Shown: in pieces, positions 83-23,622 of the stretch
Layout of the letters: every line of letters begins with the position of its first letter
Position numbering within the stretch: position 1 is the stretch's first letter
Sequence record: OQ708376.1
Reading direction: 5' to 3' (one strand)
DNA from: Escherichia phage vB_EcoM_CRJP21
DNA: 64,000 bases
Program-made: the position numbers and the translations under genes
The notes under the pieces: model-generated
Seen by the model: the letters and a program-made list of their open reading frames with translations, nothing else
Told to the model about the DNA's origin: nothing
Database searches by the model: none

Positions 83-361
83 ATGAGAACAAATGAAGTA
101 CTTATTGCTGAAACAATGAAGATGATTTACAATATCACGTCAGCACAGAATATGCCCTATCCAACTAAGTCTTTATTGAGGACTGTGTATCTGGGGATAG
201 TACAGGAGTACTACAAATCCAAGCACCGAAGCATTATTAGTGTTTATCGTGATTATGAAAGGATTCGTATTTTATTCTGGAACAAGAATCGAGTACGTTC
301 TGAATGTGACCTAGTGGACTTTAAATTAGAGAATCTTTATTGCTATAAACAGGGACAATAG
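83..361 (+). CDS. hypothetical protein
   Basis: ORF in track (65-361); first ATG at 83; frame opens after stop at 47-49. Confidence 0.4.
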   Translation: MRTNEVLIAETMKMIYNITSAQNMPYPTKSLLRTVYLGIVQEYYKSKHRSIISVYRDYERIRILFWNKNRVRSECDLVDFKLENLYCYKQGQ

Positions 362-379
362 TTTAATTCATGATATAAT
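352..379 (+). promoter_or_regulatory. sigma70-like early promoter, GGGACA-N13-TGATATAAT
   Basis: GGGACA at 352-357, 13-nt spacer, extended -10 TGATATAAT at 371-379; same architecture recurs 7 more times in window. Confidence 0.5.
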
Positions 380-419
380 AATGGGTAAGGAACAATAATT
401 AACACAAGGAGTGTGTGAA

Positions 420-1148
420 ATGCTTGACCGTATCCGTTTCGCTACAGAGATGGCGAATGAATTAAACATGGCAAATTTCCAAATGTTAACATCAGTAATG
501 GCTGAACATGCATGTGCTTATTCTGTAAGTGGTGTGCAGTGTGGTCAGGAGAATATGTTAGCAGATGTTTATAGTGAAGTGCAAAGTAAGCAATATAGTG
601 TAAAGACATATAAGGATAAGTTTGTTAGTCTTTATATGAACGAAGATATTGCTGAAGACCGTAAATTCACTGATTTTATTATTGAACGACGAGTATCAGG
701 TGTATCTAATCCTAATGCATCAAGCGAGGAAGTTTTTGCAGAAGTACTGAAAGATATATACGAAAATGAATTAAAAAGTAAGAATCATTACAATGTACGT
801 GAAACTAACACAGTGCTCTTGGGATATGATGAAGACGAAGAATACTATTATTTTCGTATGACTGAAGTTCCTTTTGAATACAAATCTCCATATACAACTA
901 CAGTGAAAGAATTTACTGAAAAAAGTAAAAACTTCATGAAGCATGAAGGAAATCGTTGTAGTATAAATGGTTACGACGAAAATGGCATTCACATTTATGA
1001 GTGGGTTCACCCAAATTGTCAGACATACACTCGTTGCTTGAAAAAACGTTATAATTTAGAAGAGCATGAATCATTCTATTTTAAAGTTAAGAAGCAAGGT
1101 TACACTCGCCCCGCCGATTCTGAATTGATGGGTATGATATATTTCTAA
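420..1148 (+). CDS. hypothetical protein
   Basis: ORF 411-1148; ATG at 420 preceded by AGGAG at 405-409. Confidence 0.55.
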   Translation: MLDRIRFATEMANELNMANFQMLTSVMAEHACAYSVSGVQCGQENMLADVYSEVQSKQYSVKTYKDKFVSLYMNEDIAEDRKFTDFIIERRVSGVSNPNASSEEVFAEVLKDIYENELKSKNHYNVRETNTVLLGYDEDEEYYYFRMTEVPFEYKSPYTTTVKEFTEKSKNFMKHEGNRCSINGYDENGIHIYEWVHPNCQTYTRCLKKRYNLEEHESFYFKVKKQGYTRPADSELMGMIYF

Positions 1149-1158
1149 GGAAACTTCT

Positions 1159-1440
1159 ATGGATTTTTATCTACACACATGGACATACGAACAATATATT
1201 ACATTATATCTTGAAATTATTAACACAGAACCTAGGTGTGGTTGTTGGTTCGCAGATATCATAAAAGAGTATGCTGACGAGTTCGAGTTTGTGTATCTTG
1301 GGTCTGATATATTTGTAAAAAGTGTAGGTAAAACCGGACGAATCACTGATATAGATTACGACACTGTTAGTGTGAATTTCTATGTTGATTTTCCTGATGC
1401 TGGAGTTGATGGTGTATATTGTCTTTATGAAATAATTTAA
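1159..1440 (+). CDS. hypothetical protein
   Basis: 93-aa ORF directly after previous gene, followed by terminator. Confidence 0.5.
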   Translation: MDFYLHTWTYEQYITLYLEIINTEPRCGCWFADIIKEYADEFEFVYLGSDIFVKSVGKTGRITDIDYDTVSVNFYVDFPDAGVDGVYCLYEII

Positions 1441-1447
1441 ATTCTTA

Positions 1448-1471
1448 GGCCAGCGTTTGCTGGTCTTTTTT
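1448..1471 (+). terminator. intrinsic terminator
   Basis: GGCCAGC-gttt-GCTGGTC stem followed by TTTTTT. Confidence 0.6.
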
Positions 1472-1484
1472 CGCAGGTACAAAG

Positions 1485-1787
1485 ATGTTCAGTATAGATT
1501 TAATTAACAGTACTATCAAAATGTTGGCTGATTTGGTGAGACAATCCAATGGAACTTTATATCCATCAATGTATAAAATGTTTGACCGATACATCAAGGA
1601 TTGTAACATATCATTATATGGACTTACTGTTGATATAGACGATTACTATGGAATTAATACTTCATATAAAACAGGAATTTTAATTGGTATTAATATAAAG
1701 ATGGGGTATTTCCCTTATTACTGTATAGGATTACCAGATAATACTTTGGTAGAATATCCAGCCAGTACTATTAAATTAAGAGGATAA
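1485..1787 (+). CDS. hypothetical protein
   Basis: 100-aa ORF, compact spacing. Confidence 0.5.
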   Translation: MFSIDLINSTIKMLADLVRQSNGTLYPSMYKMFDRYIKDCNISLYGLTVDIDDYYGINTSYKTGILIGINIKMGYFPYYCIGLPDNTLVEYPASTIKLRG

Positions 1788-1794
1788 AACTAAA

Positions 1795-2373
1795 ATGAAT
1801 GTATTAGAATTAAGTACTAAGCTGATTAGTATGCGTAATGAGTGGTACGATTGGTTTTATAATGGTACTGATATGAATTTTTCAAAATATCCATTTATGG
1901 AATCAGGATGTGATTCAAGATACCGCTGGTTGAGCAAAAGTGATTCTGGTTTACATATTAGAATCGATGATAGTGGTCGAGGAATTATACACGATTTACT
2001 TCAAGTTGATCAATTCGTCCATGACAATTGGTGTGATAACGATCCATACCTTGGAAATATGATTTATATAAGTGAAGATGATTGCGTATTCGTTATCCAG
2101 CGACATGGTAATTCTATGTTTTATGTAGCAGACAGCAGTACACCAGAAGGTGCAGCAGCCGATGGACTTATGCCTAAGATTGATATATTGGAATTTGGAT
2201 TACCTGAGCACTTCCAGATTAGTACTTTATACGATATTCCACCACTTGAGTTCTTTGAAGAATTTAAATTGTACTTCAATGATCTTCAAAAATTGAGTAC
2301 TGATAGACGCATTGAAATAACTGTTAAGTACATGGACGGAACGAAATTAACCGATACGGGGATAGAATTTTGA
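1795..2373 (+). CDS. hypothetical protein
   Basis: 192-aa ORF; ATG 8 nt after previous stop. Confidence 0.5.
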   Translation: MNVLELSTKLISMRNEWYDWFYNGTDMNFSKYPFMESGCDSRYRWLSKSDSGLHIRIDDSGRGIIHDLLQVDQFVHDNWCDNDPYLGNMIYISEDDCVFVIQRHGNSMFYVADSSTPEGAAADGLMPKIDILEFGLPEHFQISTLYDIPPLEFFEEFKLYFNDLQKLSTDRRIEITVKYMDGTKLTDTGIEF

Positions 2374-3059
2374 TTAAAGATTTAGATAGAATTTTATATG
2401 TACTAAGGGGTGTAATTACATTACATCCACAAATCAATCGAATTGAAAGTACATTTCAGTTGGAGTCAAGAGAAACTCCATATTCACATATATCAAATGT
2501 AGTTGGTTCACTCAGTACTGAAGACTCGTCTTACGATATTTGTGTATGTGAAGTACAACCAAGTTCGGATCTTGGATTTGCTATTTTTGATAAAAATCAA
2601 AATCTCATTAGTATGTTTCAGTGCAATAATCCTTTTTGGAAAACATGCCTGTATCCAGAGTGGGCTATGCTTGATCCAACCAAGAGTACCATTAAAGTTT
2701 ATGACTCTAAAAATGATGAAGTCGTTATTGATTTAGATGAGTCAATGTCAGAGGAAGAACACTTTCAGCTAATGATGATGCGTGCTATGCCTGAATACAA
2801 TGCAATGATTAACACTGTGCAATACATTAAGGATACCATGCCAGCGTTGCGTACACATGAGTTTTGTCATCCGGTATTGTATGAACATCTAGATTTAGAC
2901 TTCAGTACTATTAAATTTAAAGATAGTGTTAAAAAATATATTCAAGAGAATGTTAAATTTGATTTTATTAGTACTATGAACAATAATCCAAAAACTAATT
3001 TTAGGCATCAGTACAATGAATCTTTGTCCGGTGGACGTGATACCAGTTGGTGGAAATAA
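2370..3059 (+). CDS. hypothetical protein
   Basis: 229-aa ORF; apparent TTG start overlapping previous stop by 4 nt; no upstream in-frame ATG. Confidence 0.45.
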   Translation: MIKDLDRILYVLRGVITLHPQINRIESTFQLESRETPYSHISNVVGSLSTEDSSYDICVCEVQPSSDLGFAIFDKNQNLISMFQCNNPFWKTCLYPEWAMLDPTKSTIKVYDSKNDEVVIDLDESMSEEEHFQLMMMRAMPEYNAMINTVQYIKDTMPALRTHEFCHPVLYEHLDLDFSTIKFKDSVKKYIQENVKFDFISTMNNNPKTNFRHQYNESLSGGRDTSWWK

Positions 3060-3060
3060 T

Positions 3061-3324
3061 ATGAATATTAAAGATAGATTACAATTACTGTACACACTTG
3101 AACAGGCTGCTTATGATCTTGTTCGAAAAATCTCAGATGAACTACCTAAAGGAACTAAAGTTCGTGTACGTGAGATGAATTATTTTTCTGGAGTAATTGA
3201 AGAACAAGTACTAACAGTGAATAAAGTAACATACTATGAATCTGAGTTGTCTATTCAGTGTGAATCTGATGATGGATTAATATCATATTATGGAACTGAT
3301 GTAGATATAGAGGTAATAAAATGA
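3061..3324 (+). CDS. hypothetical small protein
   Basis: ATG at 3061 after GGTGGA; track ORF 3016-3324. Confidence 0.45.
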   Translation: MNIKDRLQLLYTLEQAAYDLVRKISDELPKGTKVRVREMNYFSGVIEEQVLTVNKVTYYESELSIQCESDDGLISYYGTDVDIEVIK

Positions 3325-4463
3325 CCCTTTTGCAAATATATGAAGATTTAATGCACTTATGTAATACAAACGATGCATTCTTTTATGTGGATCATAAAAG
3401 TCCTGCTGGTGGCACGTATCGTGTATTCAGTTATCGTCTAGCATCATACACTGATTTCATGCAACCAAATGCGTTGGAAACCCGTGGCTCTATGTGGGAA
3501 ATTGATGAAGAAGGTGACATGATACGTTGTGCAGCACGTACAATGAAAAAGTTCTTCAATGCTTACGAGAATCCTGCTACAATGTTCCCTGCTAACACCA
3601 CATGCGATGACATTGCGGTAGTGATGCCTAAGTTGGATGGCTCGATCATCAGTACTTATCGTGATAATGATGGTGAGATTCGTTGTAAATCACATACTGC
3701 ATTGTATTCTGACCATGCGATTAACAGTACTCGACTTATTAACGAGAACCAGAATTTGTATCAGTACATCGACGAAGCGGAACGTTTAGGTTACACAGTT
3801 AATATGGAGTATACAAGCCCAGAGTACCGAATTGTATTACCATATCAGGTAGAACAACTGTTTGTACTGAACGTTCGTCATCGTGTGAGTGGTGAGTTGC
3901 TATGTGGTAAAGCACTACGTGATAAGTTTCCATGTCTTGCACAGTACAGTACTAATATGACTGGAAAAGATATTCATCACACTTTTCCGGTACGAAATAC
4001 CTTCCGTGAAAGCGTGGAGGAAGTTCATAAAATGCTTGATATTGAGGGTTTTGTGTGCATCCTAAATAATGGGACAATGTGTAAAATAAAGACTGACTGG
4101 TACAGTTCATTACATCTTACAAAAGATAGTATTATTATTGATTCTCATTTATATGAAGCAGTATTAAATGGTTCAAGTGATGATTTAAAACAATTGTTCA
4201 GTACTGATGAATATGCTATGCAAAAGATATTAAGAATGGAACAATTGGTATTTTCGTGCTATAATGCATTACAAGATGAAGTAGAAAGCTTCGTCAAGGA
4301 ACACAAGCACTTGGAGCGAAAGGAATTCGCAATGAAGGTTCAGGAGTGTTTAACTAATGAACTGAATCGTCAGGGCTTGGCCTTTGCAATGTATAACAAT
4401 AAGAAAGTTGATTACAAAGAGACTCTTATAAAATACATGAAAATTGTACTAAAGGATTTTTAG
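3321..4463 (+). CDS. rnlA: RNA ligase 1 (T4 Rnl1-like)
   Basis: 380 aa; N-terminal region (FYVDHKSPAGGTYRVFSYRLASYTDF) matches T4 Rnl1 pattern; ligase motif I lysine in MPKLDGS. Confidence 0.85.
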   Translation: MTLLQIYEDLMHLCNTNDAFFYVDHKSPAGGTYRVFSYRLASYTDFMQPNALETRGSMWEIDEEGDMIRCAARTMKKFFNAYENPATMFPANTTCDDIAVVMPKLDGSIISTYRDNDGEIRCKSHTALYSDHAINSTRLINENQNLYQYIDEAERLGYTVNMEYTSPEYRIVLPYQVEQLFVLNVRHRVSGELLCGKALRDKFPCLAQYSTNMTGKDIHHTFPVRNTFRESVEEVHKMLDIEGFVCILNNGTMCKIKTDWYSSLHLTKDSIIIDSHLYEAVLNGSSDDLKQLFSTDEYAMQKILRMEQLVFSCYNALQDEVESFVKEHKHLERKEFAMKVQECLTNELNRQGLAFAMYNNKKVDYKETLIKYMKIVLKDF

Positions 4464-4493
4464 TACTATCTAGCCTAAGCACAAGGAGAAGTG

Positions 4494-4748
4494 ATGGCTA
4501 AACCTAAGTATAAAAATGACGGTTCCCTTTCTCCGACTGAATTCAGGAAAATACAAGAAGAAATCGATGAATTACAGCACAAACGCTCAATGAAAGGTGT
4601 GAAGATAAGTAAGAAACGAATCGAGAATACCTTCGGATGTAGTAGTACTGAATACAAGAAGAAAAGGAAACCAAAAGGTGTTAAGCCGAGAATACATGAT
4701 GTAACTCGCTATACATCGAAACGTGAAAATAAATTTGATCCACTATAA
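4494..4748 (+). CDS. hypothetical basic protein
   Basis: ATG at 4494 after AAGGAG; lysine/arginine-rich 84 aa. Confidence 0.45.
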   Translation: MAKPKYKNDGSLSPTEFRKIQEEIDELQHKRSMKGVKISKKRIENTFGCSSTEYKKKRKPKGVKPRIHDVTRYTSKRENKFDPL

Positions 4749-4757
4749 GGAGTTCAT

Positions 4758-4988
4758 ATGAAAGTTGAAGTTCAGCATAGTATTGTTCAGGATATGTCAG
4801 TAGTTAAATTTCTTTCTCTGAAAGATTACTTCAGATGTATCAAGTTCCTAGAAGAATCTCAATTACAGTGGACCCCATTAAAGTACAGTTCATCCAATGA
4901 TACTGCTAGTATTCGTTGTGATGAATCTGTACTTGTGAAAATCTCCAAGCGATTTGGAGTAGGAAAAGTTAATGAGCACAGTAAGTGA
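4758..4988 (+). CDS. hypothetical protein
   Basis: 76-aa ORF. Confidence 0.45.
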   Translation: MKVEVQHSIVQDMSVVKFLSLKDYFRCIKFLEESQLQWTPLKYSSSNDTASIRCDESVLVKISKRFGVGKVNEHSK

Positions 4989-5226
4989 CCTAAAATACTA
5001 CAACAAAACTGCGGATACGTTTATTACTCATTTATATGAAGAATTTAGTCGTATCCGTGAGGAATATACAGGTAAATGTATTTTATATAGTTCTTATCAT
5101 AGTGGTGGAATTGAAAGTGCTTACATTACTAAAGTGAAGTTTTCTGATGACTATCAATTACTCTTTGAATTAGATGATTGTTTCGTTATTGAAGCTTGTT
5201 TGATAGTGGATGTTCTAGATAATTGA
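4972..5226 (+). CDS. hypothetical protein
   Basis: 84-aa ORF overlapping previous by 17 nt. Confidence 0.45.
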   Translation: MSTVSDLKYYNKTADTFITHLYEEFSRIREEYTGKCILYSSYHSGGIESAYITKVKFSDDYQLLFELDDCFVIEACLIVDVLDN

Positions 5227-5232
5227 GGACAT

Positions 5233-5547
5233 ATGAATAAAGAACTTGCATTTGAGAGGATCGAAAAGTTAAAGTACATTGAAAAGGAACTAATAGAATC
5301 TGTCGAATCAATGGTCGAAGATTACGTTTTCGATTTTAAGAAAACATTGATTGGATGTAAAGTTAAATGCTGGGATCATACAATCAGAGAATGGTTCAGT
5401 ACTATAATTCTTGATGTTAAAGTATCGCGTACTGCTATTGGTAATTTAGTAAATGGTGAATGCTTTGTATACACTGAATACAATAACGGAACAAGAAACC
5501 TTTCAAGAGGATGGCACAAACTCGAAGATGTAGAATTCATTGAGTAA
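5233..5547 (+). CDS. hypothetical protein
   Basis: 104-aa ORF. Confidence 0.5.
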   Translation: MNKELAFERIEKLKYIEKELIESVESMVEDYVFDFKKTLIGCKVKCWDHTIREWFSTIILDVKVSRTAIGNLVNGECFVYTEYNNGTRNLSRGWHKLEDVEFIE

Positions 5548-5559
5548 CAAGGAGTAATA

Positions 5560-6492
5560 ATGCCAACTATTACACTAACAGTTGGATTACCTGGGTGTGG
5601 TAAAACCACATGGGCAGTTCAAGAAATTAAAAATGCCAAATCCAAGACTATCAACATCAACCGTGATGATATTCGTGAATCTATGGCTGGGTCACATGAT
5701 GCTTACAAATTCAACGATGCTAATGAGCAGTACGTAACTAATTTACAGTTCAGTGCAGCAAATTCAGCAGCAGAGAATGGTTGGAACATCATCATATCCG
5801 ATACAAACCTTAAACAACATTTCCGTAATCTCTGGAAAGTATGGGCTAAAGATAATGGTTATGATTACAAAGAAAAGAACTTCTATGATGATTTTGTACC
5901 TAATGAAGACCGTGGTGCAGATGTTCATGAATTCTTTAAGATTAAAGAGTTCGTAAAACTTTGTAAGAAATATAACCTCCAGCGTGAGCGTTCAGTACAA
6001 GATGATATCATTGACACAATGGCAGATACGTACTATTATAGTAAGGCATTGCACATTGGTTACTATGGTAATTCACGAGAAGCTGCTGTTATCGTTGATA
6101 TTGACGGTACTCTTGCTCATAAATGGGGTCGTAATCCTTACGATGAAAGTACTGTTCTTCAGGATACACCTGATGAAGAAGTTATTTTGTCTATTATCGC
6201 TGAAGCAGTTTTTCATAAACGCAAGATTATCGTCATGAGTGGGCGTACTGAAGGGTGTCGTGCTGATACCGAACAGTGGCTTAAGAATTGGGGTGTTCCT
6301 TACGATGCATTGTTTATGCGAGATATCGATGATAAACGTCCTGATGATGTTGTAAAATTCGACCTGTACATGAAAAATGTGGTTGATCATTACGATGTTA
6401 AAAAGGTATATGATGACCGAGCACAAGTCGTATTCATGTGGCGTAAGCTACTTGGTTTGAAAGTTTTTCAAGTTGCAGAAGGAAATTTCTAA
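5560..6492 (+). CDS. pseT: polynucleotide 5'-kinase / 3'-phosphatase (T4 Pnk-like)
   Basis: P-loop GLPGCGKTT, NINRDDIR, and HAD-type phosphatase motif VDIDGTL; colinear with T4 Pnk over full length. Confidence 0.85.
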   Translation: MPTITLTVGLPGCGKTTWAVQEIKNAKSKTININRDDIRESMAGSHDAYKFNDANEQYVTNLQFSAANSAAENGWNIIISDTNLKQHFRNLWKVWAKDNGYDYKEKNFYDDFVPNEDRGADVHEFFKIKEFVKLCKKYNLQRERSVQDDIIDTMADTYYYSKALHIGYYGNSREAAVIVDIDGTLAHKWGRNPYDESTVLQDTPDEEVILSIIAEAVFHKRKIIVMSGRTEGCRADTEQWLKNWGVPYDALFMRDIDDKRPDDVVKFDLYMKNVVDHYDVKKVYDDRAQVVFMWRKLLGLKVFQVAEGNF

Positions 6493-6497
6493 TACAA

Positions 6498-6528
6498 AAG
6501 GGATCATATGTTGGTCCCTTTTTCTTTT
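6498..6528 (+). terminator. intrinsic terminator
   Basis: AGGGATCA / TGGTCCCT stem followed by T-tract. Confidence 0.6.
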
Positions 6529-6541
6529 AAGGAATATTATA

Positions 6542-6718
6542 ATGAATGTAAAAACACAGATGTTATTACAAAAAGAATACTTAGAAAATATAGAAATGTT
6601 CTATAGATTGTCTTTATACGAAAATAAACATAAAAAATATAGCTTTTCTAAACATCTAAACACAAGTACTGATGATTATCTATTTTCATCAATGTTTTAT
6701 GTGAGAGGTTTATTATAA
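6542..6718 (+). CDS. hypothetical small protein
   Basis: ATG at 6542 with AAGGAA 7 nt upstream; track ORF 6473-6718 starts inside terminator. Confidence 0.4.
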   Translation: MNVKTQMLLQKEYLENIEMFYRLSLYENKHKKYSFSKHLNTSTDDYLFSSMFYVRGLL

Positions 6719-6978
6719 TGGATAAATTTCACACAGATATAACACAGATAGGTAATCTTATCAATAGTCTAATTACTGATTTAGAAGAAAAGTATTTAGG
6801 TCGAAATGTATACGTAGAAATGTATGAAACATATGGTGTTATTGATATGATTTATTACAGTGCATTGAAGTGTGAAATACGTTTAACAGTATGTTTGTTT
6901 GAAAAAAATACATTCAACAGAAGTACTGCAATTCGCCAAGTTGGAGTTGATGATATAGAATTATACGAGGAACAATGA
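6718..6978 (+). CDS. hypothetical small protein (small-protein family with KY-G-V motif)
   Basis: 86 aa; motif LEEKYLGRNVYV resembles neighbours 6975, 9670, 10673. Confidence 0.45.
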   Translation: MDKFHTDITQIGNLINSLITDLEEKYLGRNVYVEMYETYGVIDMIYYSALKCEIRLTVCLFEKNTFNRSTAIRQVGVDDIELYEEQ

Positions 6979-7229
6979 TGTTTGAGCAGGACTTAGAGAT
7001 ATTCAAAAGTCATATTGATTACTTGACTATATTAGAAAATGATTTAACTACAAAGTACAAAGGTATTCGTGTTCTGTGCTGGTATGATGATTGGGATTAT
7101 AAACGTGAACTCACGATTGATCGAATTTATTTCAGTGACGGTGTACTAAATGTACATGGTGTAAATGATTTTGGTCATTCATATACATATTCTAATAATG
7201 CTAAATTTAAAAGGATCTACAATGAATGA
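6975..7229 (+). CDS. hypothetical small protein (same family)
   Basis: 84 aa; LTTKYKGIRVLCW. Confidence 0.45.
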   Translation: MMFEQDLEIFKSHIDYLTILENDLTTKYKGIRVLCWYDDWDYKRELTIDRIYFSDGVLNVHGVNDFGHSYTYSNNAKFKRIYNE

Positions 7230-7524
7230 ATATTATCATAATTTATTCGATTACATAAAACTAATAGATGATCTTTCTTTTGAATTTCTCAGTACTGAAA
7301 AAGTTCTTGAACCTCTCTATTATGATTGTATTAGTTCACTATGTTTAGATGAAAAAGAGATATTAGCAAACAACTTACCATCCACGGTCTGTACAATCAA
7401 TGGTTCCAAGGCATTAGTGTGCGAGGTTAATTTTCATAAATCACTTAATACAATTGTTTACAAGTTCGATAACACTTGGGTAAATCATGTAACCAGTAAT
7501 ATTAAATCTGTGAGATTTTTATGA
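7222..7524 (+). CDS. hypothetical protein
   Basis: ATG at 7222 after AAGGA; track ORF 7165-7524. Confidence 0.45.
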   Translation: MNEYYHNLFDYIKLIDDLSFEFLSTEKVLEPLYYDCISSLCLDEKEILANNLPSTVCTINGSKALVCEVNFHKSLNTIVYKFDNTWVNHVTSNIKSVRFL

Positions 7525-7817
7525 ATATAAAAAAATTATTTGAACAAGTAAATTTATTGTACTGGTGTTCAGACGGTTCAGATAAGGAATATAGTGAAGT
7601 TTATTTAGAACTGTTTAGAACTGAAATTCATCAAATTCGAAGATACCTAATTGATAACAAAACTAAAGTACAAGTAAGATACCATAACGGTACTTTAAAG
7701 AATGGTGTAATTATTGGATTGATAGTTACACGAATGTCTAATAATATTAAAGTTGCAGTTAGATTAATGACTGATGATGGTGTCTACACAATAGAAGCTA
7801 GTGAGATTATATATTAA
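7521..7817 (+). CDS. hypothetical protein
   Basis: 98-aa ORF, ATGA overlap with previous. Confidence 0.45.
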   Translation: MNIKKLFEQVNLLYWCSDGSDKEYSEVYLELFRTEIHQIRRYLIDNKTKVQVRYHNGTLKNGVIIGLIVTRMSNNIKVAVRLMTDDGVYTIEASEIIY

Positions 7818-8123
7818 ATGGATATACAAACATTCAATAAACTTAAGTACTATGATGATGGTTTTGCATTAATAATTAACGAACTTGATGGAATACCATA
7901 CGAATATCATAATCAAGTAATGAAGATAATAAAATGTATATGTGAAGAATTAAAAAGTATATTTAAAAATGAATATGTTTATGATTTAGGTAATAATAGC
8001 AAAAAACTATACATAAAGAAATTCTGGGGAACGCATTGCGGTTTGATGGTCGATTTAGGTTTAAGTTTAGACGATAATTCTGAATCATGTTCATTATATA
8101 TAGATGAAATGCGAATATCATGA
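7818..8123 (+). CDS. hypothetical protein
   Basis: 101-aa ORF. Confidence 0.45.
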   Translation: MDIQTFNKLKYYDDGFALIINELDGIPYEYHNQVMKIIKCICEELKSIFKNEYVYDLGNNSKKLYIKKFWGTHCGLMVDLGLSLDDNSESCSLYIDEMRIS

Positions 8124-8149
8124 GACGTATCAGAATTCGGTGATATAAT
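8122..8149 (+). promoter_or_regulatory. sigma70-like promoter, GAGACG-N13-TGATATAAT
   Basis: extended -10 TGATATAAT 8141-8149; -10 sits inside inverted repeat GGTGAT...ATCACC (8140-8165). Confidence 0.45.
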
Positions 8150-8180
8150 TTGATTACATCACCAATAGGGAGAAGTTGAA

Positions 8181-8507
8181 GTGAATGGTTCGTTTTTAAC
8201 AATATTAGAAAAGACAACCGAGATGCTTTCTAGCTCGTTAATGCAGATTTTCAGTACTAATAATTTATACAATACCCAGGTGTTAGATTCAATTAATAAT
8301 AACTATGTGGTAAGTATATCTGATGAAATATGTCCATTTAACGCGTATTCAATTTATAGTGTAGAAGAGTTTCATATATCCGAGATTCGATGTGGTTTTG
8401 GTGCTTGGTTAGTTCTAAATGAACGTTCAGGGTTGTCTTTATACATCGAAGAAGTTAGTAAATTTATATACAAAGGAGTAGAATATGTTAACCCCAATTA
8501 TTCTTAG
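8181..8507 (+). CDS. hypothetical protein
   Basis: 108-aa ORF, apparent GTG start after GGGAGAAG. Confidence 0.4.
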   Translation: MNGSFLTILEKTTEMLSSSLMQIFSTNNLYNTQVLDSINNNYVVSISDEICPFNAYSIYSVEEFHISEIRCGFGAWLVLNERSGLSLYIEEVSKFIYKGVEYVNPNYS

Positions 8508-9123
8508 CAGTGCATATGTAATCGGTATTATTATTTCTGGTATGCTTGCATATAACTATAACCGAAGTGTTCTAGGTTATGTAGTACTTGGTACAGTACT
8601 AAGTCCAGTGATTGCTATTGGTCTTCTTGTTATGCTAGGTGAGAAAAATACAAGCTTCTTTATTACTAAAGAACTTGATAAAATCACCCCAGCACCAGAA
8701 ACAGTTATTCCAGAAGTTAAAGAAGAAGTTAAAGAAGTTAAAGAAGTTGAAGTGCAAATGCAAGTTAAAGTGTATAATACACTTGAAGAAACTGACCCTA
8801 AAGTTGTAGTGAATGTAGTTCCAGTCGTTGAAGAGGTGAAACCAAAAGCTCCTAAAGTACAGAAAAATACTAAAACTGCAAAGAAAGCTCGTTACACTAA
8901 AGGTAAGAACAAAGGTAAATCTAAGGATGAACCACAACTAGGTGTTCATGACCATACTGCACAAATTGCAACGGCAGCGACCGCAGCAGCAATCGTAACA
9001 TCACCAATCTACAACAATGATGATTACAGTGATTATAGCCGTCACAGCAGTTCTTCCTCTGATTCTTGTTCCTATGATAGCTCTAGTTCTGATTCAAGTT
9101 CATCTTCTGGAAGTTGTGATTAA
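8485..9123 (+). CDS. membrane protein with KEV repeats and Ser/Asp-rich tail
   Basis: two N-terminal hydrophobic helices; (VKEE/VKEV) repeats; C-terminal SSSSSDSCSYDSSSSDSSSSSGS. Confidence 0.5.
   Translation: MLTPIILSSAYVIGIIISGMLAYNYNRSVLGYVVLGTVLSPVIAIGLLVMLGEKNTSFFITKELDKITPAPETVIPEVKEEVKEVKEVEVQMQVKVYNTLEETDPKVVVNVVPVVEEVKPKAPKVQKNTKTAKKARYTKGKNKGKSKDEPQLGVHDHTAQIATAATAAAIVTSPIYNNDDYSDYSRHSSSSSDSCSYDSSSSDSSSSSGSCD
8713..8753 (+). repeat. short tandem repeat (GTTAAAGAA-like units) inside CDS
   Basis: gaagttaaagaagaagttaaagaagttaaagaagttgaag encodes EVKEEVKEVKEVEV. Confidence 0.6.
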
Positions 9124-9452
9124 TGTCAATGAAACCACTAATTCAACATAATATTTTTTATAGGTCATTATTCAAAATTCAAGATGATTTTTATCAGACG
9201 TTGAGTAATGTTCTTATAGGTAAAACTGTACGATATTCGGAACAATACATCAAACGTATGACAAGTCAGTATATTGACCCTGAATACGAATACGACATTG
9301 AACACATTAATCCCAATACTAGAATGAAAATCATTGAGATATTTAAGAATGGGAGAACTATAGGTGCTGAAATTGAGTACTTAAATTGTGATTGTTACAT
9401 AGATACAGAGTTGAGTTTGGATTATCTTGTTTTAGTGGATGATGAGGAATAA
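9123..9452 (+). CDS. hypothetical protein
   Basis: 109-aa ORF. Confidence 0.45.
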   Translation: MSMKPLIQHNIFYRSLFKIQDDFYQTLSNVLIGKTVRYSEQYIKRMTSQYIDPEYEYDIEHINPNTRMKIIEIFKNGRTIGAEIEYLNCDCYIDTELSLDYLVLVDDEE

Positions 9453-9454
9453 TT

Positions 9455-9670
9455 ATGATAACATTTTTCGCAATATATGGATTTGTAGCATTTGTTACAT
9501 TTATAACCAACTTTCTAGTACTTAATTGGGGTTGTTTTAAAGATGAAATCATGATTATCATGAATCTCCAAACAGCAGCACTGATGGCTATTATTTGGCC
9601 TGTAACGTTAGTATATATTTTTATTTCACTTACCCAAGATATTATTAACAAATATAAGAGAAAGAAATAA
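9455..9670 (+). CDS. small membrane protein
   Basis: 71 aa, two hydrophobic segments. Confidence 0.45.
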   Translation: MITFFAIYGFVAFVTFITNFLVLNWGCFKDEIMIIMNLQTAALMAIIWPVTLVYIFISLTQDIINKYKRKK

Positions 9671-9921
9671 TGTTCAACAACGACTTATCACATTTGCGAT
9701 ATCTTATGTCTTTGGCTGATGATTTTATAAATGATCTGAAGCCAAAATATATTGGTCAAGAAGTACGATTAATAAACTCCAGAGGGTATGGAAAGTATAT
9801 TATTACTGATATGTATATTAGTGGTGGTGAATGGCGTTTTAAAATTAATACTTATCTTAAAGATGGTTCTTTTGCTGGAACACAAGTTACTAAACACACT
9901 AATATTATATGGTTGGAGTAA
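9670..9921 (+). CDS. hypothetical small protein (KY-G-V family)
   Basis: 83 aa; LKPKYIGQEVRLI. Confidence 0.45.
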   Translation: MFNNDLSHLRYLMSLADDFINDLKPKYIGQEVRLINSRGYGKYIITDMYISGGEWRFKINTYLKDGSFAGTQVTKHTNIIWLE

Positions 9922-9923
9922 TA

Positions 9924-10667
9924 ATGAAACATTTCTTAGAAGTAACCGTACCTGATGATAAAGATTTATACATTGTAGGTGATTTGCATGGTAATGGTAA
10001 ACTATGGGATGCTACAGTGAAAGAATTTGGTATTACACACAATGATTATGTTTTCAGTGTAGGTGATATTATCGACCGTGGAGAACAAAATTCAAAGCTC
10101 CTTTTTGAATTTTTGTTCGGAGAAAATCGTTACATGATTGCGGGTAATCATGAGATGATGTGCGTTGATTCGGAAACACTTCGAGATTGGTATCATTGTT
10201 GGATAAGTAATGGTGGTGATAAATTCCTTGATGAAGTTGGAGGAACAGGTATTCAATTCTTTCGTCAGTACTTGAAAGATCTCCCTATGATTATCCAAAT
10301 CAATCACCGAGGATTGAAGATTGGGTTAGTTCATGCTGGAGTTCCGTTGGAATATACAACATGGGAACGATTTGTTAATGGGACAAAATCACTTAGTGCT
10401 GATATAATTGATAAGTGCTTGTGGGATAGAAAAACATTCGATTATTGTAGAACTAATAATACATATTATGCACCTAAGTTAGATGGAGTGCATTGTGTCT
10501 TTAGTGGACATACAGCAGTTACAGACCCACTCATTTACGGTAATCGCATTTGGATTGATAGTCAGTTCTTGACGGGTGACTTAACTCTCGCTACTCCACA
10601 AAGTGGTGGAATGAGATACTTACGTAAAGAAAAAGATGAGTACTCATTCAATCGTTTCAAAAGGTAA
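9924..10667 (+). CDS. Ser/Thr protein phosphatase-family metallophosphatase
   Basis: GDLHGN, GDIIDRGEQ, GNHEMM motifs (PPP/ApaH-like); ATG 9924. Confidence 0.7.
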   Translation: MKHFLEVTVPDDKDLYIVGDLHGNGKLWDATVKEFGITHNDYVFSVGDIIDRGEQNSKLLFEFLFGENRYMIAGNHEMMCVDSETLRDWYHCWISNGGDKFLDEVGGTGIQFFRQYLKDLPMIIQINHRGLKIGLVHAGVPLEYTTWERFVNGTKSLSADIIDKCLWDRKTFDYCRTNNTYYAPKLDGVHCVFSGHTAVTDPLIYGNRIWIDSQFLTGDLTLATPQSGGMRYLRKEKDEYSFNRFKR

Positions 10668-10672
10668 TAATT

Positions 10673-10942
10673 ATGCATGATGTAGTTAAAAAATATTTGA
10701 ATGATAGATATATTATGAAAAAATCTATTAATTCTATCCTAAAAGACCATGCTAATCAAATACGTGAGATTCTATCAAATAAACTTATTGGTTGTTCAGT
10801 TGAGTTCAACTACAAAAAGAATGTCGTGAAGATTGGAGTTATTAAACGTGTAGTTGCTGTTTATGACCAAAATGTATATGTTGAAATTGAATATGATGGT
10901 AAATTATCACAATTAAGTACTGAAGATTTAACATTTTTATAA
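10673..10942 (+). CDS. hypothetical small protein
   Basis: 89-aa ORF. Confidence 0.45.
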   Translation: MHDVVKKYLNDRYIMKKSINSILKDHANQIREILSNKLIGCSVEFNYKKNVVKIGVIKRVVAVYDQNVYVEIEYDGKLSQLSTEDLTFL

Positions 10943-10952
10943 GGAAATAGAA

Positions 10953-11180
10953 ATGAAAGTAATTCAAGTTATGGTAGAAAAATACCAAACTGAAGATGGT
11001 CGTATTTTTGATTCAGCTAAACAAGCTGAACACCATGAACGTATTATTTCGGGTGCACGTAAAGTATGTCCTACATGTAATGGAACACAACAAGTACCGT
11101 CAGAAGATTACCGCAGCTTTTATGCTTGTCCACACTGTGATGGGAAAGGCTACGTAGAAAAACAAGAGGTATGGAAATGA
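10953..11180 (+). CDS. zinc-ribbon small protein
   Basis: CPTCNG ... CPHCDGKG, two CxxC pairs. Confidence 0.45.
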   Translation: MKVIQVMVEKYQTEDGRIFDSAKQAEHHERIISGARKVCPTCNGTQQVPSEDYRSFYACPHCDGKGYVEKQEVWK

Positions 11181-11590
11181 AATTGTATTGTTTAACTAAT
11201 ATGTACTGCCAAGGTGTCCAAGCTGGTATTCAAGCATTCCATGCTGGTGTTAAACTAATTAAAGAATATGAAGGTACTGCTTTCAGTACTATTATTGATG
11301 AATGGTACTATGAACACGAAACTATTGTAGTACTAAATGCTGGTGGACATGATAAGTTAAATTTTTATTATAACAACCTTAGCAAACAGGGAAAAGTTCC
11401 GTTTGCCAAATTCAATGAAGCTGGATTGAATGATGCTATTACCTGTGTAGCAGTACTGTGTACGTCTGAAATGATTGAAGACATGGCTGTTATGCGTATG
11501 AATCTTCCTGCTGGTGATCAACTAATGCAAGTAAAATATGGTGCATTGTTTGACACATTAAAAGCAATCAGCACAATGAGGACTATTTGA
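11171..11590 (+). CDS. possible PTH2-like (peptidyl-tRNA hydrolase 2 fold) protein
   Basis: spacing pattern of conserved Gly/Ala/His/Asp positions resembles PTH2; assignment by eye only. Confidence 0.35.
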   Translation: MEMKLYCLTNMYCQGVQAGIQAFHAGVKLIKEYEGTAFSTIIDEWYYEHETIVVLNAGGHDKLNFYYNNLSKQGKVPFAKFNEAGLNDAITCVAVLCTSEMIEDMAVMRMNLPAGDQLMQVKYGALFDTLKAISTMRTI

Positions 11591-19871: not shown

Positions 19872-20480
19872 ATGAAAAGACTATGGCTTGAAGTGATACA
19901 AGCAGCGATGTTTCTATTGTTAATAAATTTTCCAGCCAGTGCTGGTATTGAAAGTAAAAATGTGATAAAGTATAATCCTGAAACCCGAAATGTATATTTC
20001 ATATCAGATATTACAGATGGGTCACTCAAGAGAATGATAGAGTTGTATGATAAAGAACACTATGATACCATCACAATTACATCTCCTGGTGGTGATTTTG
20101 ATGCAGGTATTCGAATGGCAAACTTTGTTAGAGACAATGGGATAAATTTAATTGTTTCTAGGTATTGCAATTCAGCATGTACTGTGGTATTCTTTAGTGT
20201 ATCTCCCGAAAAGCGATATATGACAAATCGCTCAGTACTGGGTCTTCATAACATTTCGATTAAAAGTAATGTTACTGATGGTGATAATTCATTTGTGTCT
20301 GTAAGACAGCTATCAACTTTTACCGAAGAAATGGCAACAAAGGTAGGTTTCCTTTTTTCACTATATGCAGCAAATGGAATCCCACCAGAAGTTCTATTTA
20401 GAGTTAGTCGTTCTCGTGGTGAAGATGTTGTAATATTAACAAAACCAGAACTGGTTTTTTACGGTTCAGTCAAACAATAA
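19872..20480 (+). CDS. secreted ClpP-fold serine peptidase-like protein
   Basis: signal peptide MKRLWLEVIQAAMFLLLINFPASA; ITSPGGDFDAG aligned to ClpP SPGG region. Confidence 0.5.
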   Translation: MKRLWLEVIQAAMFLLLINFPASAGIESKNVIKYNPETRNVYFISDITDGSLKRMIELYDKEHYDTITITSPGGDFDAGIRMANFVRDNGINLIVSRYCNSACTVVFFSVSPEKRYMTNRSVLGLHNISIKSNVTDGDNSFVSVRQLSTFTEEMATKVGFLFSLYAANGIPPEVLFRVSRSRGEDVVILTKPELVFYGSVKQ

Positions 20481-20550
20481 AAATAATTAAAATAACAGGA
20501 TGATTATGATGTACTTCCTTTGTTATTAATTATATTGAGATTATATAACT

Positions 20551-20811
20551 ATGACAAACATCCAAAACTTGACATCTATTATTTTTTATGCTACTGTAGT
20601 AATGTATGCTACAGTTATTTTTCTAACAGTTTTCATTTACAAAGATTATCGTAATGGCTTTATTGATCCAACTACAATGAAGTTCAATTCAAAATTCGAA
20701 GCAATAATTTATTATGTACTATCAACTTCATACTTGGTGTGCCTAATGTTGTTAGGAGCACTAATTTATATCTTATACACAACATTATTTGCAATTGGAG
20801 CTATTTTATGA
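20551..20811 (+). CDS. small membrane protein
   Basis: two long hydrophobic segments. Confidence 0.45.
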   Translation: MTNIQNLTSIIFYATVVMYATVIFLTVFIYKDYRNGFIDPTTMKFNSKFEAIIYYVLSTSYLVCLMLLGALIYILYTTLFAIGAIL

Positions 20812-21401
20812 CCTGTATTATTGCACACACTGACGGAGTAAGTTCTTTTATTGCTGGGGATAAGTTAGGAAGCAATGGATTTACAAAAACTGTTCAAACT
20901 GAGCCAAAGGTATTCGAGAAAGAATTTATCAAGTTACATGATGATGGACTAACTAGAACTAAAGAAGTAATGGCATTGGGTTATACTACATCATTTCGTA
21001 TGGGTCAGTTGTTAAATTATAACCTTAATTTACCTGAACAAGATGCTAGTCAAACATTTTCACAATATTTGGTTCTTAAAGTTATTCCAATCATTCGTCA
21101 AATGTTTAAAGAAGAATGGGGTGCACGAGATGCATCACAAGATGTAGGTGGTGGACAATTTATCATTCTCCACAATCATACAATCTATGAAGTTCAAGAA
21201 GACTTTTCAGTACTACAACCTAAAACAAGAATTACCGCAGTAGGTAGTGGGACATATCATGCAATTGCAGCAATGCAAGCATATATTGAAGTTGAGAACG
21301 AATCTAAAAAACCACTACACGAACGTATCAAATCAATTTTTAAAATTGTTAGTGATAATGTAACAAGCGTAAGCGAAGAGTTTGATGTTTTAAAATATTA
21401 A
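20808..21401 (+). CDS. HslV / proteasome beta-like Ntn peptidase
   Basis: ATG 20808 gives MTCIIAHTDG (Thr at position 2 as in HslV); FIAGDKLGSNG and TAVGSGTYHAIAAMQA parallel HslV. Confidence 0.55.
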   Translation: MTCIIAHTDGVSSFIAGDKLGSNGFTKTVQTEPKVFEKEFIKLHDDGLTRTKEVMALGYTTSFRMGQLLNYNLNLPEQDASQTFSQYLVLKVIPIIRQMFKEEWGARDASQDVGGGQFIILHNHTIYEVQEDFSVLQPKTRITAVGSGTYHAIAAMQAYIEVENESKKPLHERIKSIFKIVSDNVTSVSEEFDVLKY

Positions 21402-21428
21402 AAGTACTAATATTATAAGAGAGAATAG

Positions 21429-21623
21429 ATGATGGCATACACAATTTATGAATGGGTTTTGAGTTTTTTTATAGTTTTTTCTATTGTTGTAATTTATAAC
21501 AATGCTAAATGCTTATATAGGGACTTGAAATCCAATGGTTATCACAAAGATAATAATTTTATGTATGCCTATCATATTGGAATCATTCTGTTATTATCAA
21601 TATATTTAATTGTTTTTTTATAA
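21429..21623 (+). CDS. small membrane protein
   Basis: 64 aa, hydrophobic. Confidence 0.4.
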   Translation: MMAYTIYEWVLSFFIVFSIVVIYNNAKCLYRDLKSNGYHKDNNFMYAYHIGIILLLSIYLIVFL

Positions 21624-21632
21624 GGATTGAAT

Positions 21633-22385
21633 ATGATATCAGAAAAATTTATAAGCAATGAAGGTAAAAAGCGATTACTGATTATATCAGGTGCAGGACT
21701 TTCTGTTGAAAGTGGTATGGAACCTTTTCGATTTGATGATGGTTTGTGGGATACATTTAAAATTAATGATGTATGTAACATTGCTAGTTTAACTACGAAA
21801 TATCACGTTGTTCATTCCTTCTATAATACATTACGTGTAAAATTGGGTCAATGCAAACCCAATGCAATGCATTATTTTATAAAATCGTTAGAAGATCAAT
21901 ATGGTGATTGCTTCCTTCATATGACTTCTAACATGGACGATCTTTATACTCGTATTGGTGGTCATGAGCTTAAACTTCATGGAAACTTGTGCGAAGTTAT
22001 TGAAAATTATAGTATCAATTCCGATGATTATAATGTTATTAACTGCGGATACGAACCATACATACCAAAACATGATGTTTTTGCCAAACCAAATGTAGTA
22101 ATGATTGGAGAATATCATCGTTATGTTGATGGTATTCGCTTACCAATTTACGAAGAACGAAATAATGTGTTGAAATCTCTTAATGAAAATGATACAGTTA
22201 TTGTAATTGGTAGTAGCGATACAGTACTGGTATGGTCGAGATTAGCAGCAGCATTACCATGTTATAGTGTTAATGTTAACATTCGTAAAAATGATAATGA
22301 TTTTTTGTTTAATGAAAAAGTTATCAAGCCAGCAACCAAAGCAATACCGCATCTAGAGACTATAATTAAGGAACGTATGAAATGA
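21633..22385 (+). CDS. Sir2-family (sirtuin/CobB-like) NAD-dependent enzyme
   Basis: GAGLSVESGMEPFR, HMTSNMDDL, catalytic LHGNL, VVMIGE, VIGSSDTV; lacks canonical CxxC zinc tetrad. Confidence 0.75.
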   Translation: MISEKFISNEGKKRLLIISGAGLSVESGMEPFRFDDGLWDTFKINDVCNIASLTTKYHVVHSFYNTLRVKLGQCKPNAMHYFIKSLEDQYGDCFLHMTSNMDDLYTRIGGHELKLHGNLCEVIENYSINSDDYNVINCGYEPYIPKHDVFAKPNVVMIGEYHRYVDGIRLPIYEERNNVLKSLNENDTVIVIGSSDTVLVWSRLAAALPCYSVNVNIRKNDNDFLFNEKVIKPATKAIPHLETIIKERMK

Positions 22386-22933: not shown

Positions 22934-22942
22934 GAGTTTAAC

Positions 22943-23263
22943 ATGTCTTACTCAATGTTTTTGGATGATATTCGTGATGCAAATCTATATTATCCAAACC
23001 AAGATATGGTGGTATGTCGTGACTTTAAAAGTGCATGTGAATATGTTATTGAAAATGGAATTCCAGCATTTGTATCATTCGACCATGACTTGGGTGATGT
23101 GAGCGAAGACGAAAAGACTGGATATTCTTTTGCTAAGTTTCTTATTGATTATATGTTTGATAATAATATTAAAGAACCGTTTGAGTACTTTGTTCACAGT
23201 AGTAATCCTGTTGGTAAAATTAATATTGAAACATACTTAAACAATGGATTTAACTCATTATGA
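22943..23263 (+). CDS. hypothetical protein
   Basis: 106-aa ORF. Confidence 0.45.
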   Translation: MSYSMFLDDIRDANLYYPNQDMVVCRDFKSACEYVIENGIPAFVSFDHDLGDVSEDEKTGYSFAKFLIDYMFDNNIKEPFEYFVHSSNPVGKINIETYLNNGFNSL

Positions 23264-23562: not shown

Positions 23563-23622
23563 TAATCCGAGTCAATAACATTAGTCGAGTACAAGGATGT
23601 ACTCATAACTCAAGGATGTTTT

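Follow-up and report, generated by a model that had tools for sequence, protein, structure and literature searches.

About 80% of the genes of jumbo phages have no assigned function. In large phages, paralogous families are known from accessory or hyperplastic regions, such as the plastic regions of T4-like phages, and paralogues have been noted in the Rak2-like phage CBB, whose genome paper reports 22 paralogous ORFs (PMC5259590). A family of small phage proteins of similar kind is formed by T4 GoF along with MotB.1 and Frd.2, early proteins of Tevenvirinae with an LSm-like fold (Kim et al. 2025, PMC12152347), whose T4 genes occupy an early, accessory portion of the genome. The same work gave monomer and dimer for MotB.1 and GoF, and no plating or burst-size phenotype for the T4 mutants in laboratory conditions (PMC12152347).

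The window analyzed here, a stretch of 64,000 nucleotides from Escherichia phage vB_EcoM_CRJP21 (OQ708376.1), comes from an Asteriusvirus jumbo coliphage of the 121Q/PBECO4/G17 type, with DNA identity of 99.4% to Escherichia phage vB_EcoM_E9.1 and 97.7% to 121Q. This E. coli phage encodes one small protein in at least 12 versions that have diverged very far from each other, and the family they form is real and unannotated. With a probability of roughly 60%, we regard it as a lineage-specific set of highly diverged Asteriusvirus paralogues of 83-109 aa, with a predicted architecture of a helix plus a Tudor/SH3-like barrel, which would act as non-virion binding modules. As in the T4 GoF family, the proteins are small and dissimilar in sequence, and the five-strand barrel of SH3 topology is seen only by deep profiles and AlphaFold. 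However, the T4 proteins (119-141 aa) have the barrel at the N-terminus and continue with a linker and then a C-terminal domain that is variable, while in the Asteriusvirus family the order is reversed, with the helix first and the barrel last; the copy number also differs, with three copies in T4 and at least 13 in 11 kb, plus an upstream array, in the Asteriusvirus phage. When 16 family orthogroup profiles were compared by hhalign with T4 GoF, MotB.1 and MotB, the best match had P=0.017 over 11 columns, and no PHROG was shared.

The sequence-only reading had proposed a scattered family of small proteins with a common K-Y-x-G-x-x-V core, listing five genes and two possible distant members (3061 and 5233; genes are named here by their first coordinate). 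All the peptides on which it was based, including LIGKTVRY and LIGCSVEF, were found in the respective ORFs (Table 1), and in every candidate the motif lies within residues 22-41. Compared with composition-preserving shuffles, K-Y-x-G-x-x-V was observed 4 times (0.24 expected), L-x-x-K-Y-x-G-x-x-V 3 times (0.01 expected) and L-I-G-x-x-V 4 times (0.43 expected), although these counts are post hoc, as the motif was chosen by eye among about 120 proteins. One of the four K-Y-x-G-x-x-V carriers, 55083, is a 2H phosphoesterase and a false member. Both motif variants are combined in an allele of phage phAPEC6, DKYKSNLIGKKVRCW, and an N-terminal h-x-Y motif is common to most copies (HLRY, DLKY, KLKY, QLLY, NLLY, NIFY).

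Pairwise phmmer searches within the window gave no significant pair of candidates; it is the profile methods that link them. In leave-one-out tests with an HMM built from the candidates, each one ranked 1-3 of 114, but the ranks dropped to 10-75 of 114 when the motif was masked, so that this signal mostly reflects the motif-based choice of the candidates. Iterative HMM searches on the window alone drifted to the false members 48792 and 55083. The unbiased test was an all-against-all hhalign comparison of 44 orthogroups, with profiles that included diverged orthologues from four other Asteriusvirus genomes. Among the seven candidates of the sequence-only reading, P<1e-3 was reached in 8 of 21 pairs (median P 0.004), against 0 of 42 pairs between the candidates and seven unrelated neighboring small genes (median P 0.22). 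At the same threshold one component of 17 nodes was obtained, which contained all seven candidates together with 4972, 7521, 1159 and 7818, while the control genes stayed isolated. The hhalign P-values look somewhat optimistic here (the median over all pairs being 0.27) and several links are only about 1e-3 to 1e-4; the column-shuffle z of the family links is 5-11. After excision of the 12-residue motif, scores between family members still exceeded those between family and controls (Mann-Whitney p=5e-6 for the helix part and 4e-4 for the barrel part), a weak similarity that persists without the motif. In addition, iterative hmmsearch seeded by 9670 alone recruited 6718, then an upstream copy and then 6975, with 5233 next at E=0.002.

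Table 1. Coordinates in the window of the family members and candidates, with their core peptides and links (P-values are from hhalign unless stated otherwise).
Coordinates	Strand	Length (aa)	Core peptide or feature	Status	Links
83..361	+	92		possible; last copy of the upstream tandem array	P=5.4e-4 to array profile (E9.1 60.8-62.2 kb), 79 columns, z=7.6
1159..1440	+	93	FEFVYLGSDIFV	additional, probable	P=7.6e-4 to 7521, 9.1e-4 to 4972, 1.5e-3 to 9670; its orthogroup HMM matches 6718 at 6e-3
1485..1787	+	100	NISLYGLTVDI	possible	in cluster only at P<3e-3; recurrent weak match of motif-masked HMMs
3061..3324	+	87	ELPKGTKVRV	probable, weaker links	P=6.2e-4 to 6975, 79 columns, column-shuffle z=5.3; no direct signal to 10673 (column-shuffle z=0.2)
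4972..5226	+	84	IREEYTGKCILY	additional member, absent from the first list	Smith-Waterman z=6.5 to 9670; P=3.6e-4 to 9670, 4.4e-4 to 6975; best non-training match of the candidate HMMs
5233..5547	+	104	KKTLIGCKVKCW	member	P=5.9e-5 to 9670, 2.4e-4 to 10673 (76 columns), 3e-4 to 9123
6718..6978	+	86	LEEKYLGRNVYV	member	phmmer E=5e-4 to upstream copy E9.1 38520-38828 (FEEKYAGRKVLC); P=1.6e-4 to 9670, 63 columns; weak match to phrog_11429, in common with 6975
6975..7229	+	84	LTTKYKGIRVLCW; start overlaps stop of 6718	member	P=1.4e-4 to 9670, 4.3e-4 to E9.1 62677-62967, 6.2e-4 to 3061
7521..7817	+	98	YLIDNKTKVQVRY; without the Gly	additional, probable	P=7.6e-4 to 1159, persisting without the motif (C part P=5e-4); matched by the 10673 orthogroup HMM at E=0.01
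7818..8123	+	101		additional, probable; linked via diverged copies in Turkey5 and A4	P=1.5e-5 to Turkey5 9083-9382, itself linked to 9670 at 2.6e-4
9123..9452	+	109	LIGKTVRY; longer insert in the barrel region	member	P=9.9e-6 to 9670, probability 82, column-shuffle z=11.2
9670..9921	+	83	LKPKYIGQEVRLI	member, hub of the family
10673..10942	+	89	LIGCSVEF, LSNKLIGCSVEF	member

The proposed family is thus confirmed and is larger than first listed, with 4972, 7521, 1159 and 7818 added and possibly 83 and 1485. Of the two genes suggested as distant members, 5233 is now firm, being matched by the 9670 orthogroup HMM at E=3e-5, and 3061 is held by a weaker link (P=6e-4 at best, over 79 columns). Stronger links are seen among 6718, 6975, 9670, 5233 and 9123 than to 3061, 10673 or 7521. 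Two further ORFs flagged by eye, 7222-7524 and 8223-8507, fell outside the cluster and were not counted as members. A tandem array of further family copies is located just upstream of the window, with one more copy at E9.1 38.5 kb; these upstream copies were placed on the E9.1 genome, where the census covered the sequence outside 127-368 kb, and a threshold of P<3e-3 is needed to bring the array into the main group.

Structures were modeled with AlphaFold2 for two members, 9670 (pLDDT 76) and 10673 (pLDDT 88), from non-overlapping alignments that each included presumed paralogues. The order of secondary structure is the same in both models, namely a helix, four strands, a 3-10 turn and a fifth strand: in 9670, helix 2-27 is followed by a turn at Gly29 and five strands, and in 10673, helix 2-38 is followed by a turn at Gly40 and five strands, with the 3-10 turn before strand 5. 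The sheet forms a strongly bent antiparallel barrel with this turn between strands 4 and 5, and both models match the same Tudor/SH3-like structures in the PDB. Each copy is predicted to consist of a long amphipathic N-terminal helix, a glycine turn and a five-stranded Tudor/SH3-like barrel, and the earlier suggestion of a single small fold duplicated many times is supported both by the one profile cluster of the seven candidates and by the two agreeing models. In these models K-Y-x-G-x-x-V would span the junction of helix and barrel, with K-Y as the end of the helix, G at the turn and V within strand 1. Since the core sits at this junction, it is probably conserved for folding and not as an active site, which accounts for it as a structural hinge.

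In its predicted SH3-like small beta-barrel, the phage family resembles the Tudor, chromo and PWWP domains (the 'Royal family') and KOW. The Pfam families of Tudor, KOW, chromo, PWWP and SH3 gave no sequence-profile match to the phage family, and neither did any PDB chain. The N-terminal helix of 26-37 residues in the phage proteins is foreign to those domains, and the context is that of a bacterial virus. No conserved counterpart of the aromatic cage by which Tudor readers bind methyl-lysine or methyl-arginine is evident in the family alignments, where no set of 3-4 aromatics is conserved and a single Tyr, located after strand 1, is widely shared; the KOW profile (PF00467, NusG/Spt5/L24) with its conserved glycines was not matched either. 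In Pfam as a whole, the 10 members searched gave no match at the cut-off of any family (the strongest being unrelated matches at E>=0.015), NCBIfam gave no match for family members, and sequence-profile searches of the PDB found nothing below E=0.1. Foldseek against viral models gave nothing below E=1e-3 and did not retrieve the paralogues themselves, and the search of PHROGs, where each gene lies in its own PHROG, was uninformative.

It is very improbable that the core is a mere coincidence among small K/Y/I/N-rich ORFs of AT-rich coding, with no family behind it. The lack of a significant phmmer pair and the choice of the motif by eye would fit such a coincidence, but the unbiased profile clustering with negative controls contradicts it, the iterative search arrives at these genes from one seed sequence, and the independent structure predictions agree on one architecture. 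Analogy is less improbable but still unlikely: the proteins would be unrelated, each with a helix and an SH3-like barrel, and G-x-x-V would mark in a generic way where the chain turns into strand 1. Phages commonly carry SH3-like barrels, and KOW motifs too have G-x-x-V at strand 1, so that the fold could account for some of the similarity. However, the helix and barrel parts score above controls without the motif, and the copies share their length, domain order and, mostly, the N-terminal h-x-Y. The genes are also tightly clustered, intermediates such as the phAPEC6 allele chain the subgroups together, and recent duplications are clear in the upstream tandem array (phmmer 1e-7).

Two other explanations accept homology and differ in function. 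The proteins could be small RNA-binding proteins of the Sm/Hfq type. They would act jointly with the products of the neighboring genes for RNA ligase 1, polynucleotide kinase-phosphatase, PTH2 and 2H-phosphoesterase, modulating the stability of RNA or the repair of tRNA/mRNA. An N-terminal helix, five bent antiparallel strands and a similar size are found in both, which is the Sm layout, and the family genes are interleaved with RNA-repair genes; still, this seems doubtful. Neither Sm1/Sm2 motifs nor an LSM/Hfq profile match were found, and Sm proteins were not the closest structural neighbors. It seems more unlikely still that the proteins redirect host transcription as Tudor-like modulators bound to RNA polymerase, in the manner of the Tudor-like domains of CarD, Mfd and PcrA/UvrD, since the structural matches to these are no better than those to dozens of other Tudor/PWWP/chromo domains, Pfam shows no sequence similarity to CarD_TRCF_RID or KOW, and a single conserved target is difficult to square with a set of over 13 divergent copies.

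Returning to lineage-specific paralogues, the distribution of the genes is consistent with this reading. A word-indexed homologue search with 9670 retrieved only its own cluster, the same search with a 12-sequence alignment only orthologues of 64-99% identity, and HMMER, run in full against 1.84 billion representatives, gave nothing beyond orthologues, a diverged orthologue of 9670 (P0048) and a false positive, with no relative outside the lineage. Matches of 10673 in tblastn were confined to the 35 Asteriusvirus records, and the family was not detectable in Salmonella phage 7t3, which is more distant, when its syntenic region was searched. With no relatives found outside the genus, the family appears to be restricted to this lineage. 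The dN/dS values of 0.04-0.28 (median 0.16) indicate purifying selection and real genes, and whole-gene dN/dS showed no sign of positive selection. Between related phages, the identity of orthologues is bimodal, either 80-94% or 30-42%/absent, while the neighboring enzyme genes keep 74-96%. For example, 4972 is absent from TH47 and from phAPEC6-type genomes, and in the latter 4972 and 5233 are replaced by the single 5233-like allele, 35% identical to 5233, that carries the combined motif. A promoter scan showed no enrichment (64 found, 64 expected).

In this reading the family grew by local duplication, with the upstream tandem array and the copies scattered among the RNA-ligase, polynucleotide-kinase and Ser/Thr-phosphatase genes, and whole copies are swapped between related phages for alleles only 30-42% identical, although purifying selection maintains them. 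To hypothesize, the products would be accessory proteins of a non-virion kind, synthesized before replication or in the course of it; gp360c-gp383c are all missing from that portion of the phAPEC6 virion mass spectrometry table which was considered (PMC7247149). Binding may be the task of the barrel and dimerization possibly that of the helix, and the partners, host or phage macromolecules, would differ from copy to copy. Since 9 of 13 copies are acidic (pI 4.0-5.3), binding of proteins looks more likely than binding of nucleic acids for most of them. Our best guess is that they are binding modules of a non-structural kind, used in taking over the host or in counter-defence. Allele replacement, RNA-repair/phosphatase neighbors, purifying selection and non-detection in the virion are traits to be expected if the proteins face host factors that vary, and the copies are thus concrete candidates for screens on host takeover or counter-defence. 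It is a tentative and rather improbable extension that they form a cassette repertoire of Tudor/SH3-like binders, in which alleles 30-42% identical are exchanged at fixed genomic slots to neutralize different host defence or housekeeping factors. If true, one helix-plus-Tudor-barrel scaffold would carry a diversifying toolkit for anti-defence or host takeover, with a logic like that of anti-CRISPR or Ocr-like inhibitor arsenals but with a different fold.

At least 12 separate "hypothetical protein" families, each in its own PHROG, are hereby merged, and the resulting superfamily has a defined predicted fold. No description of this Asteriusvirus helix-plus-barrel family came up in literature searches. 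It is a new lineage-specific family on a known fold and an ordinary kind of phage gene expansion; as paralogue expansions and SH3-like barrels in phages are well known in general, the finding is useful and unsurprising. The pattern is the same as in the paralogue families of other large phages, with small one-strand ORFan clusters among conserved enzyme genes, variable between close relatives, although the Asteriusvirus family has diverged beyond the reach of BLAST or of clustering into PHROGs. Other large families are also present upstream in the same genome, e.g., one of 28 copies and one of 14 copies.

The window belongs to an Asteriusvirus jumbo coliphage. Over bases 3000-11000 it shares 99.4% identity with Escherichia phage vB_EcoM_E9.1 and 97.7% with 121Q, and all 35 related records are of Escherichia or Salmonella. 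Every gene in the candidate region is on the + strand, and the seven candidates (ORFs starting at 3061, 5233, 6718, 6975, 9123, 9670 and 10673; 83-109 aa, core at residues 22-41) are labelled "hypothetical protein" in all records. None matches Pfam or NCBIfam, and each protein has a separate PHROG, with 6718 and 6975 both matching phrog_11429 weakly. Each peptide quoted in the sequence-only reading was found at its ORF. In post hoc counts compared with composition-preserving shuffles, K-Y-x-G-x-x-V was observed 4 times (0.24 expected), L-x-x-K-Y-x-G-x-x-V 3 times (0.01) and L-I-G-x-x-V 4 times (0.43); one of the four K-Y-x-G-x-x-V carriers, 55083, is a false member, as it is a 2H phosphoesterase. 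An h-x-Y motif at the N terminus also recurs in most copies (HLRY, DLKY, KLKY, QLLY, NLLY, NIFY; QFTY in a tandem array).

Within the window, plain pairwise phmmer gave no significant candidate pair. In Smith-Waterman comparisons with shuffles, 9670 is the hub, with z = 6.5 (4972), 6.1 (6718), 4.5 (9123), 4.1 (6975) and 3.7 (5233), where z>3 occurs in 1% of 105 background pairs, and iterative hmmsearch from 9670 alone gains 6718, an upstream copy and 6975, the next being 5233 (E=0.002). In a leave-one-out HMM each omitted candidate ranked 1-3 of 114; the ranks drop to 10-75 when the 12-residue core is masked, and therefore this test mostly re-detects the feature by which the candidates had been selected.

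The decisive comparison ignored the motif. All small proteins, those of the syntenic region in four diverged Asteriusvirus genomes (ph0011, Turkey5, TH47, A4) included, were sorted into 44 orthogroups, and all 946 pairs were run in hhalign. At P<1e-3 a single 17-node component contains all seven candidates, including 3061 and 5233, which had been proposed as distant members, with 4972, 7521, 1159, 7818 and E9.1 62677 also among its members; a second consists of the tandem array, E9.1 62417 and window gene 83. Both fuse at P<3e-3, where 1485 is added, and the unrelated neighbours 4494, 4758, 7222, 8223, 9455 and 10953 do not join the clusters. Among the seven candidates P<1e-3 was reached in 8 of 21 pairs (median 0.004), compared with 0 of 42 pairs against seven control genes (median 0.22), and the observed score exceeded all 60 column shuffles in 12 of 15 key pairs (z 5-11). 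After removal of the core, family-family profile scores were still higher than family-control scores for both the N-terminal (Mann-Whitney p=5e-6) and C-terminal parts (p=4e-4). When orthogroup HMMs were run on 278 proteins from 127 kb of genome, almost all matches were to other family members (for example 9670 to 5233 at 3e-5).

Two AlphaFold2 predictions were made from disjoint alignments. The model of 9670 (aligned with 6718, 6975, 5233, 4972 and 9123; mean pLDDT 76.3) has a helix at 2-27 and strands at 31-34, 42-51, 54-62, 68-75 and 79-81; that of 10673 (aligned with 3061, 7521, 1159 and orthologues of these; mean pLDDT 88.0) has a helix at 2-38 and strands at 42-47, 51-64, 67-74, 77-82 and 86-88, a 3-10 turn preceding the last. 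In both, the helix ends at K-Y (or K-L), the invariant Gly forms the turn and the Val lies within strand 1, a placement that makes the core the predicted hinge between helix and barrel; this would account for the strong conservation of the core, the best-conserved segment in copies that elsewhere share no more than 15-30% identity. The proposal of a single small fold duplicated many times is supported and extended: the family is a real superfamily, restricted to the genus, of small proteins with a helix followed by a Tudor/SH3-like barrel, and bases 83-10942 contain at least 11 probable and 2 possible copies. In some records and UniRef, 7521 (orthologues P0013; ph0011 locus vBEcoMphAPEC6_00930) is named 'Mononegavirus-type SAM-dependent 2'-O-MTase domain-containing protein'; Pfam gave no methyltransferase match for it, and the name looks spurious, the protein being a family member.

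Upstream of the window, 63 kb of E9.1 sequence contain a copy with FEEKYAGRKVLC, significant to 6718 (phmmer 5e-4). The tandem array, whose copies carry Q-F-T-Y-K at the N terminus and Y-I-G-K-S-I-I as their core, is, on profile comparison, probably the recently duplicated branch of the superfamily. Neither a word-indexed search nor full HMMER over 1.84 billion representative proteins returned anything but orthologues; the one diverged 9670 orthologue (P0048) lies beside a Metallophos gene, on a metagenome contig of 1.3 kb, and is therefore syntenic. Matches of 10673 in tblastn are confined to the 35 Asteriusvirus records, and in the more distant Salmonella phage 7t3 the enzymes persist in the syntenic region, with no family member detectable. 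Measured against ph0011 and TH47, the family's dN/dS ranges from 0.04 to 0.28 (median 0.16; neighbours 0.08), which marks the copies as protein-coding genes under constraint, slightly looser than that on the enzymes. Orthologue identity is bimodal: in ph0011, TH47, A4 and Turkey5 it is 89, 35, 38 and 94% for 5233, and 89%, absent, 33 and 89% for 4972, with the enzyme genes alongside at 74-96%. Genomes of the phAPEC6/PBECO4 type carry, in place of 4972 and 5233, one 103-aa 5233-like allele (~35% identity to 5233, in a region 98% identical), whose core DKYKSNLIGKKVRCW combines both motif variants. Such a pattern points to whole cassettes being replaced, not to gradual drift.

Tudor/SH3-like barrels typically serve as interaction modules, and an amphipathic helix of 26-37 residues, longer than the barrel, may mediate self-association. 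Our best guess, at a probability of roughly one third, is that the copies are non-structural accessory binders serving host takeover or counter-defence, and that targets differ among copies. They could instead be LSm-like RNA binders tied to the RNA-repair genes nearby. RNA-polymerase binding, as by the Tudor-like domains of CarD, Mfd and PcrA, is another alternative. Nine of 13 copies are acidic (pI 4.0-5.3), which argues against generic nucleic-acid binding for most of them. The rows considered of the 62-protein virion mass-spectrometry table (PMC7247149) include none of the phAPEC6 proteins gp360c-gp383c, so, as far as those rows go, a structural role is unlikely.

The closest described case is T4 GoF/MotB.1/Frd.2, early proteins of dissimilar sequence that only deep searches and AlphaFold brought together, as an "LSm-like" family of barrels with SH3 topology; the mutants tested showed no plating or burst-size phenotype (PMC12152347). 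The present family resembles that case but does not belong to it: here the order is reversed (helix then barrel, without the C-terminal domain), profile comparison with GoF, MotB.1 and MotB gave no similarity (best P=0.017), and copy number is far higher. Nor does the sequence place it in curated Tudor, KOW or Sm families, to which only the predicted fold relates it. Rak2-like and other jumbo phages are known for paralogue expansions (PMC5259590). No published description of the helix-plus-barrel superfamily was found in the literature searched; it is previously unrecognised, its fold class and evolutionary mode being familiar.

Coordinates of neighbouring genes, further copies and other features (window numbering unless stated; L003 and L004, E9.1 stretches upstream of the window; L010, phAPEC6 stretch)
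Feature	Position	Strand	Remark
RNA ligase 1	3321-4463	+	interleaved with candidates
Polynucleotide kinase-phosphatase (Pnkp)	5560-6492	+	interleaved with candidates
Ser/Thr phosphatase	9909-10667	+	interleaved with candidates
DnaJ-like zinc-finger protein		+	interleaved with candidates
PTH2 peptidyl-tRNA hydrolase	11171-11590	+	interleaved with candidates; PTH2 match E=9e-5
2H phosphoesterase 'Swiss Army Knife' domain (PF22547)	55083-55493		match E=1.2e-5
Family member 7521	7521-7817		98 aa
Upstream copy	E9.1 38520-38828		
Tandem array	L003 22823-24968 (E9.1 60822-62967), running on into window 83-361		seven or eight copies, ~90-100 aa
103-aa allele (phAPEC6 gp373c)	L010 4972-5283		
Terminator-like hairpin, T tract	1447-1466	+	directly after gene 1159-1440
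Terminator-like hairpin, T tract	6496-6522	+	after polynucleotide kinase gene
212-aa protein	8485-9123		
[FL]LGTNYQ family	L004 / E9.1 20205-27724		28 members, tandem, ~65-90 aa
E-E-L-F-Q-E-S-L-V family	L004/L003, E9.1 about 25959-44306		14 members, ~105-150 aa, unannotated
Large paralogues	33411-36107; 36633/36723-39452		898 and 909 aa, phmmer E=6e-63
Relative between them	36119-36706		195 aa
Adjacent paralogues	48143-48415; 48436-48792		phmmer E=1.5e-29
Adjacent paralogues	57582-57992; 58087-58401		phmmer E=2.5e-11
Adjacent triplet	39520-40086; 40093-40614; 40611-41120		phmmer E=2.3e-12

The genes at 55083 and 11171 add to RNA ligase 1 and Pnkp, giving the window an extended RNA/tRNA-repair set. 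No Pfam match was found for the proteins at 33411, 36119 and 36633/36723, nor for those tested from the adjacent pairs and triplet. The 212-aa protein, also without a Pfam match and weakly conserved among relatives (44-55% or absent), has hydrophobic segments at the N terminus, a region of K/E/V-rich repeats and, at the C terminus, a tail rich in Ser/Asp/Cys (SSSSSDSCSYDSSSSDSSSSSGSCD). The [FL]LGTNYQ family, its members linked by phmmer at E<1e-3, is distinct from the helix-plus-barrel family. Terminator-like sites number 10 in 11.6 kb, compared with 3.7 expected from shuffles.
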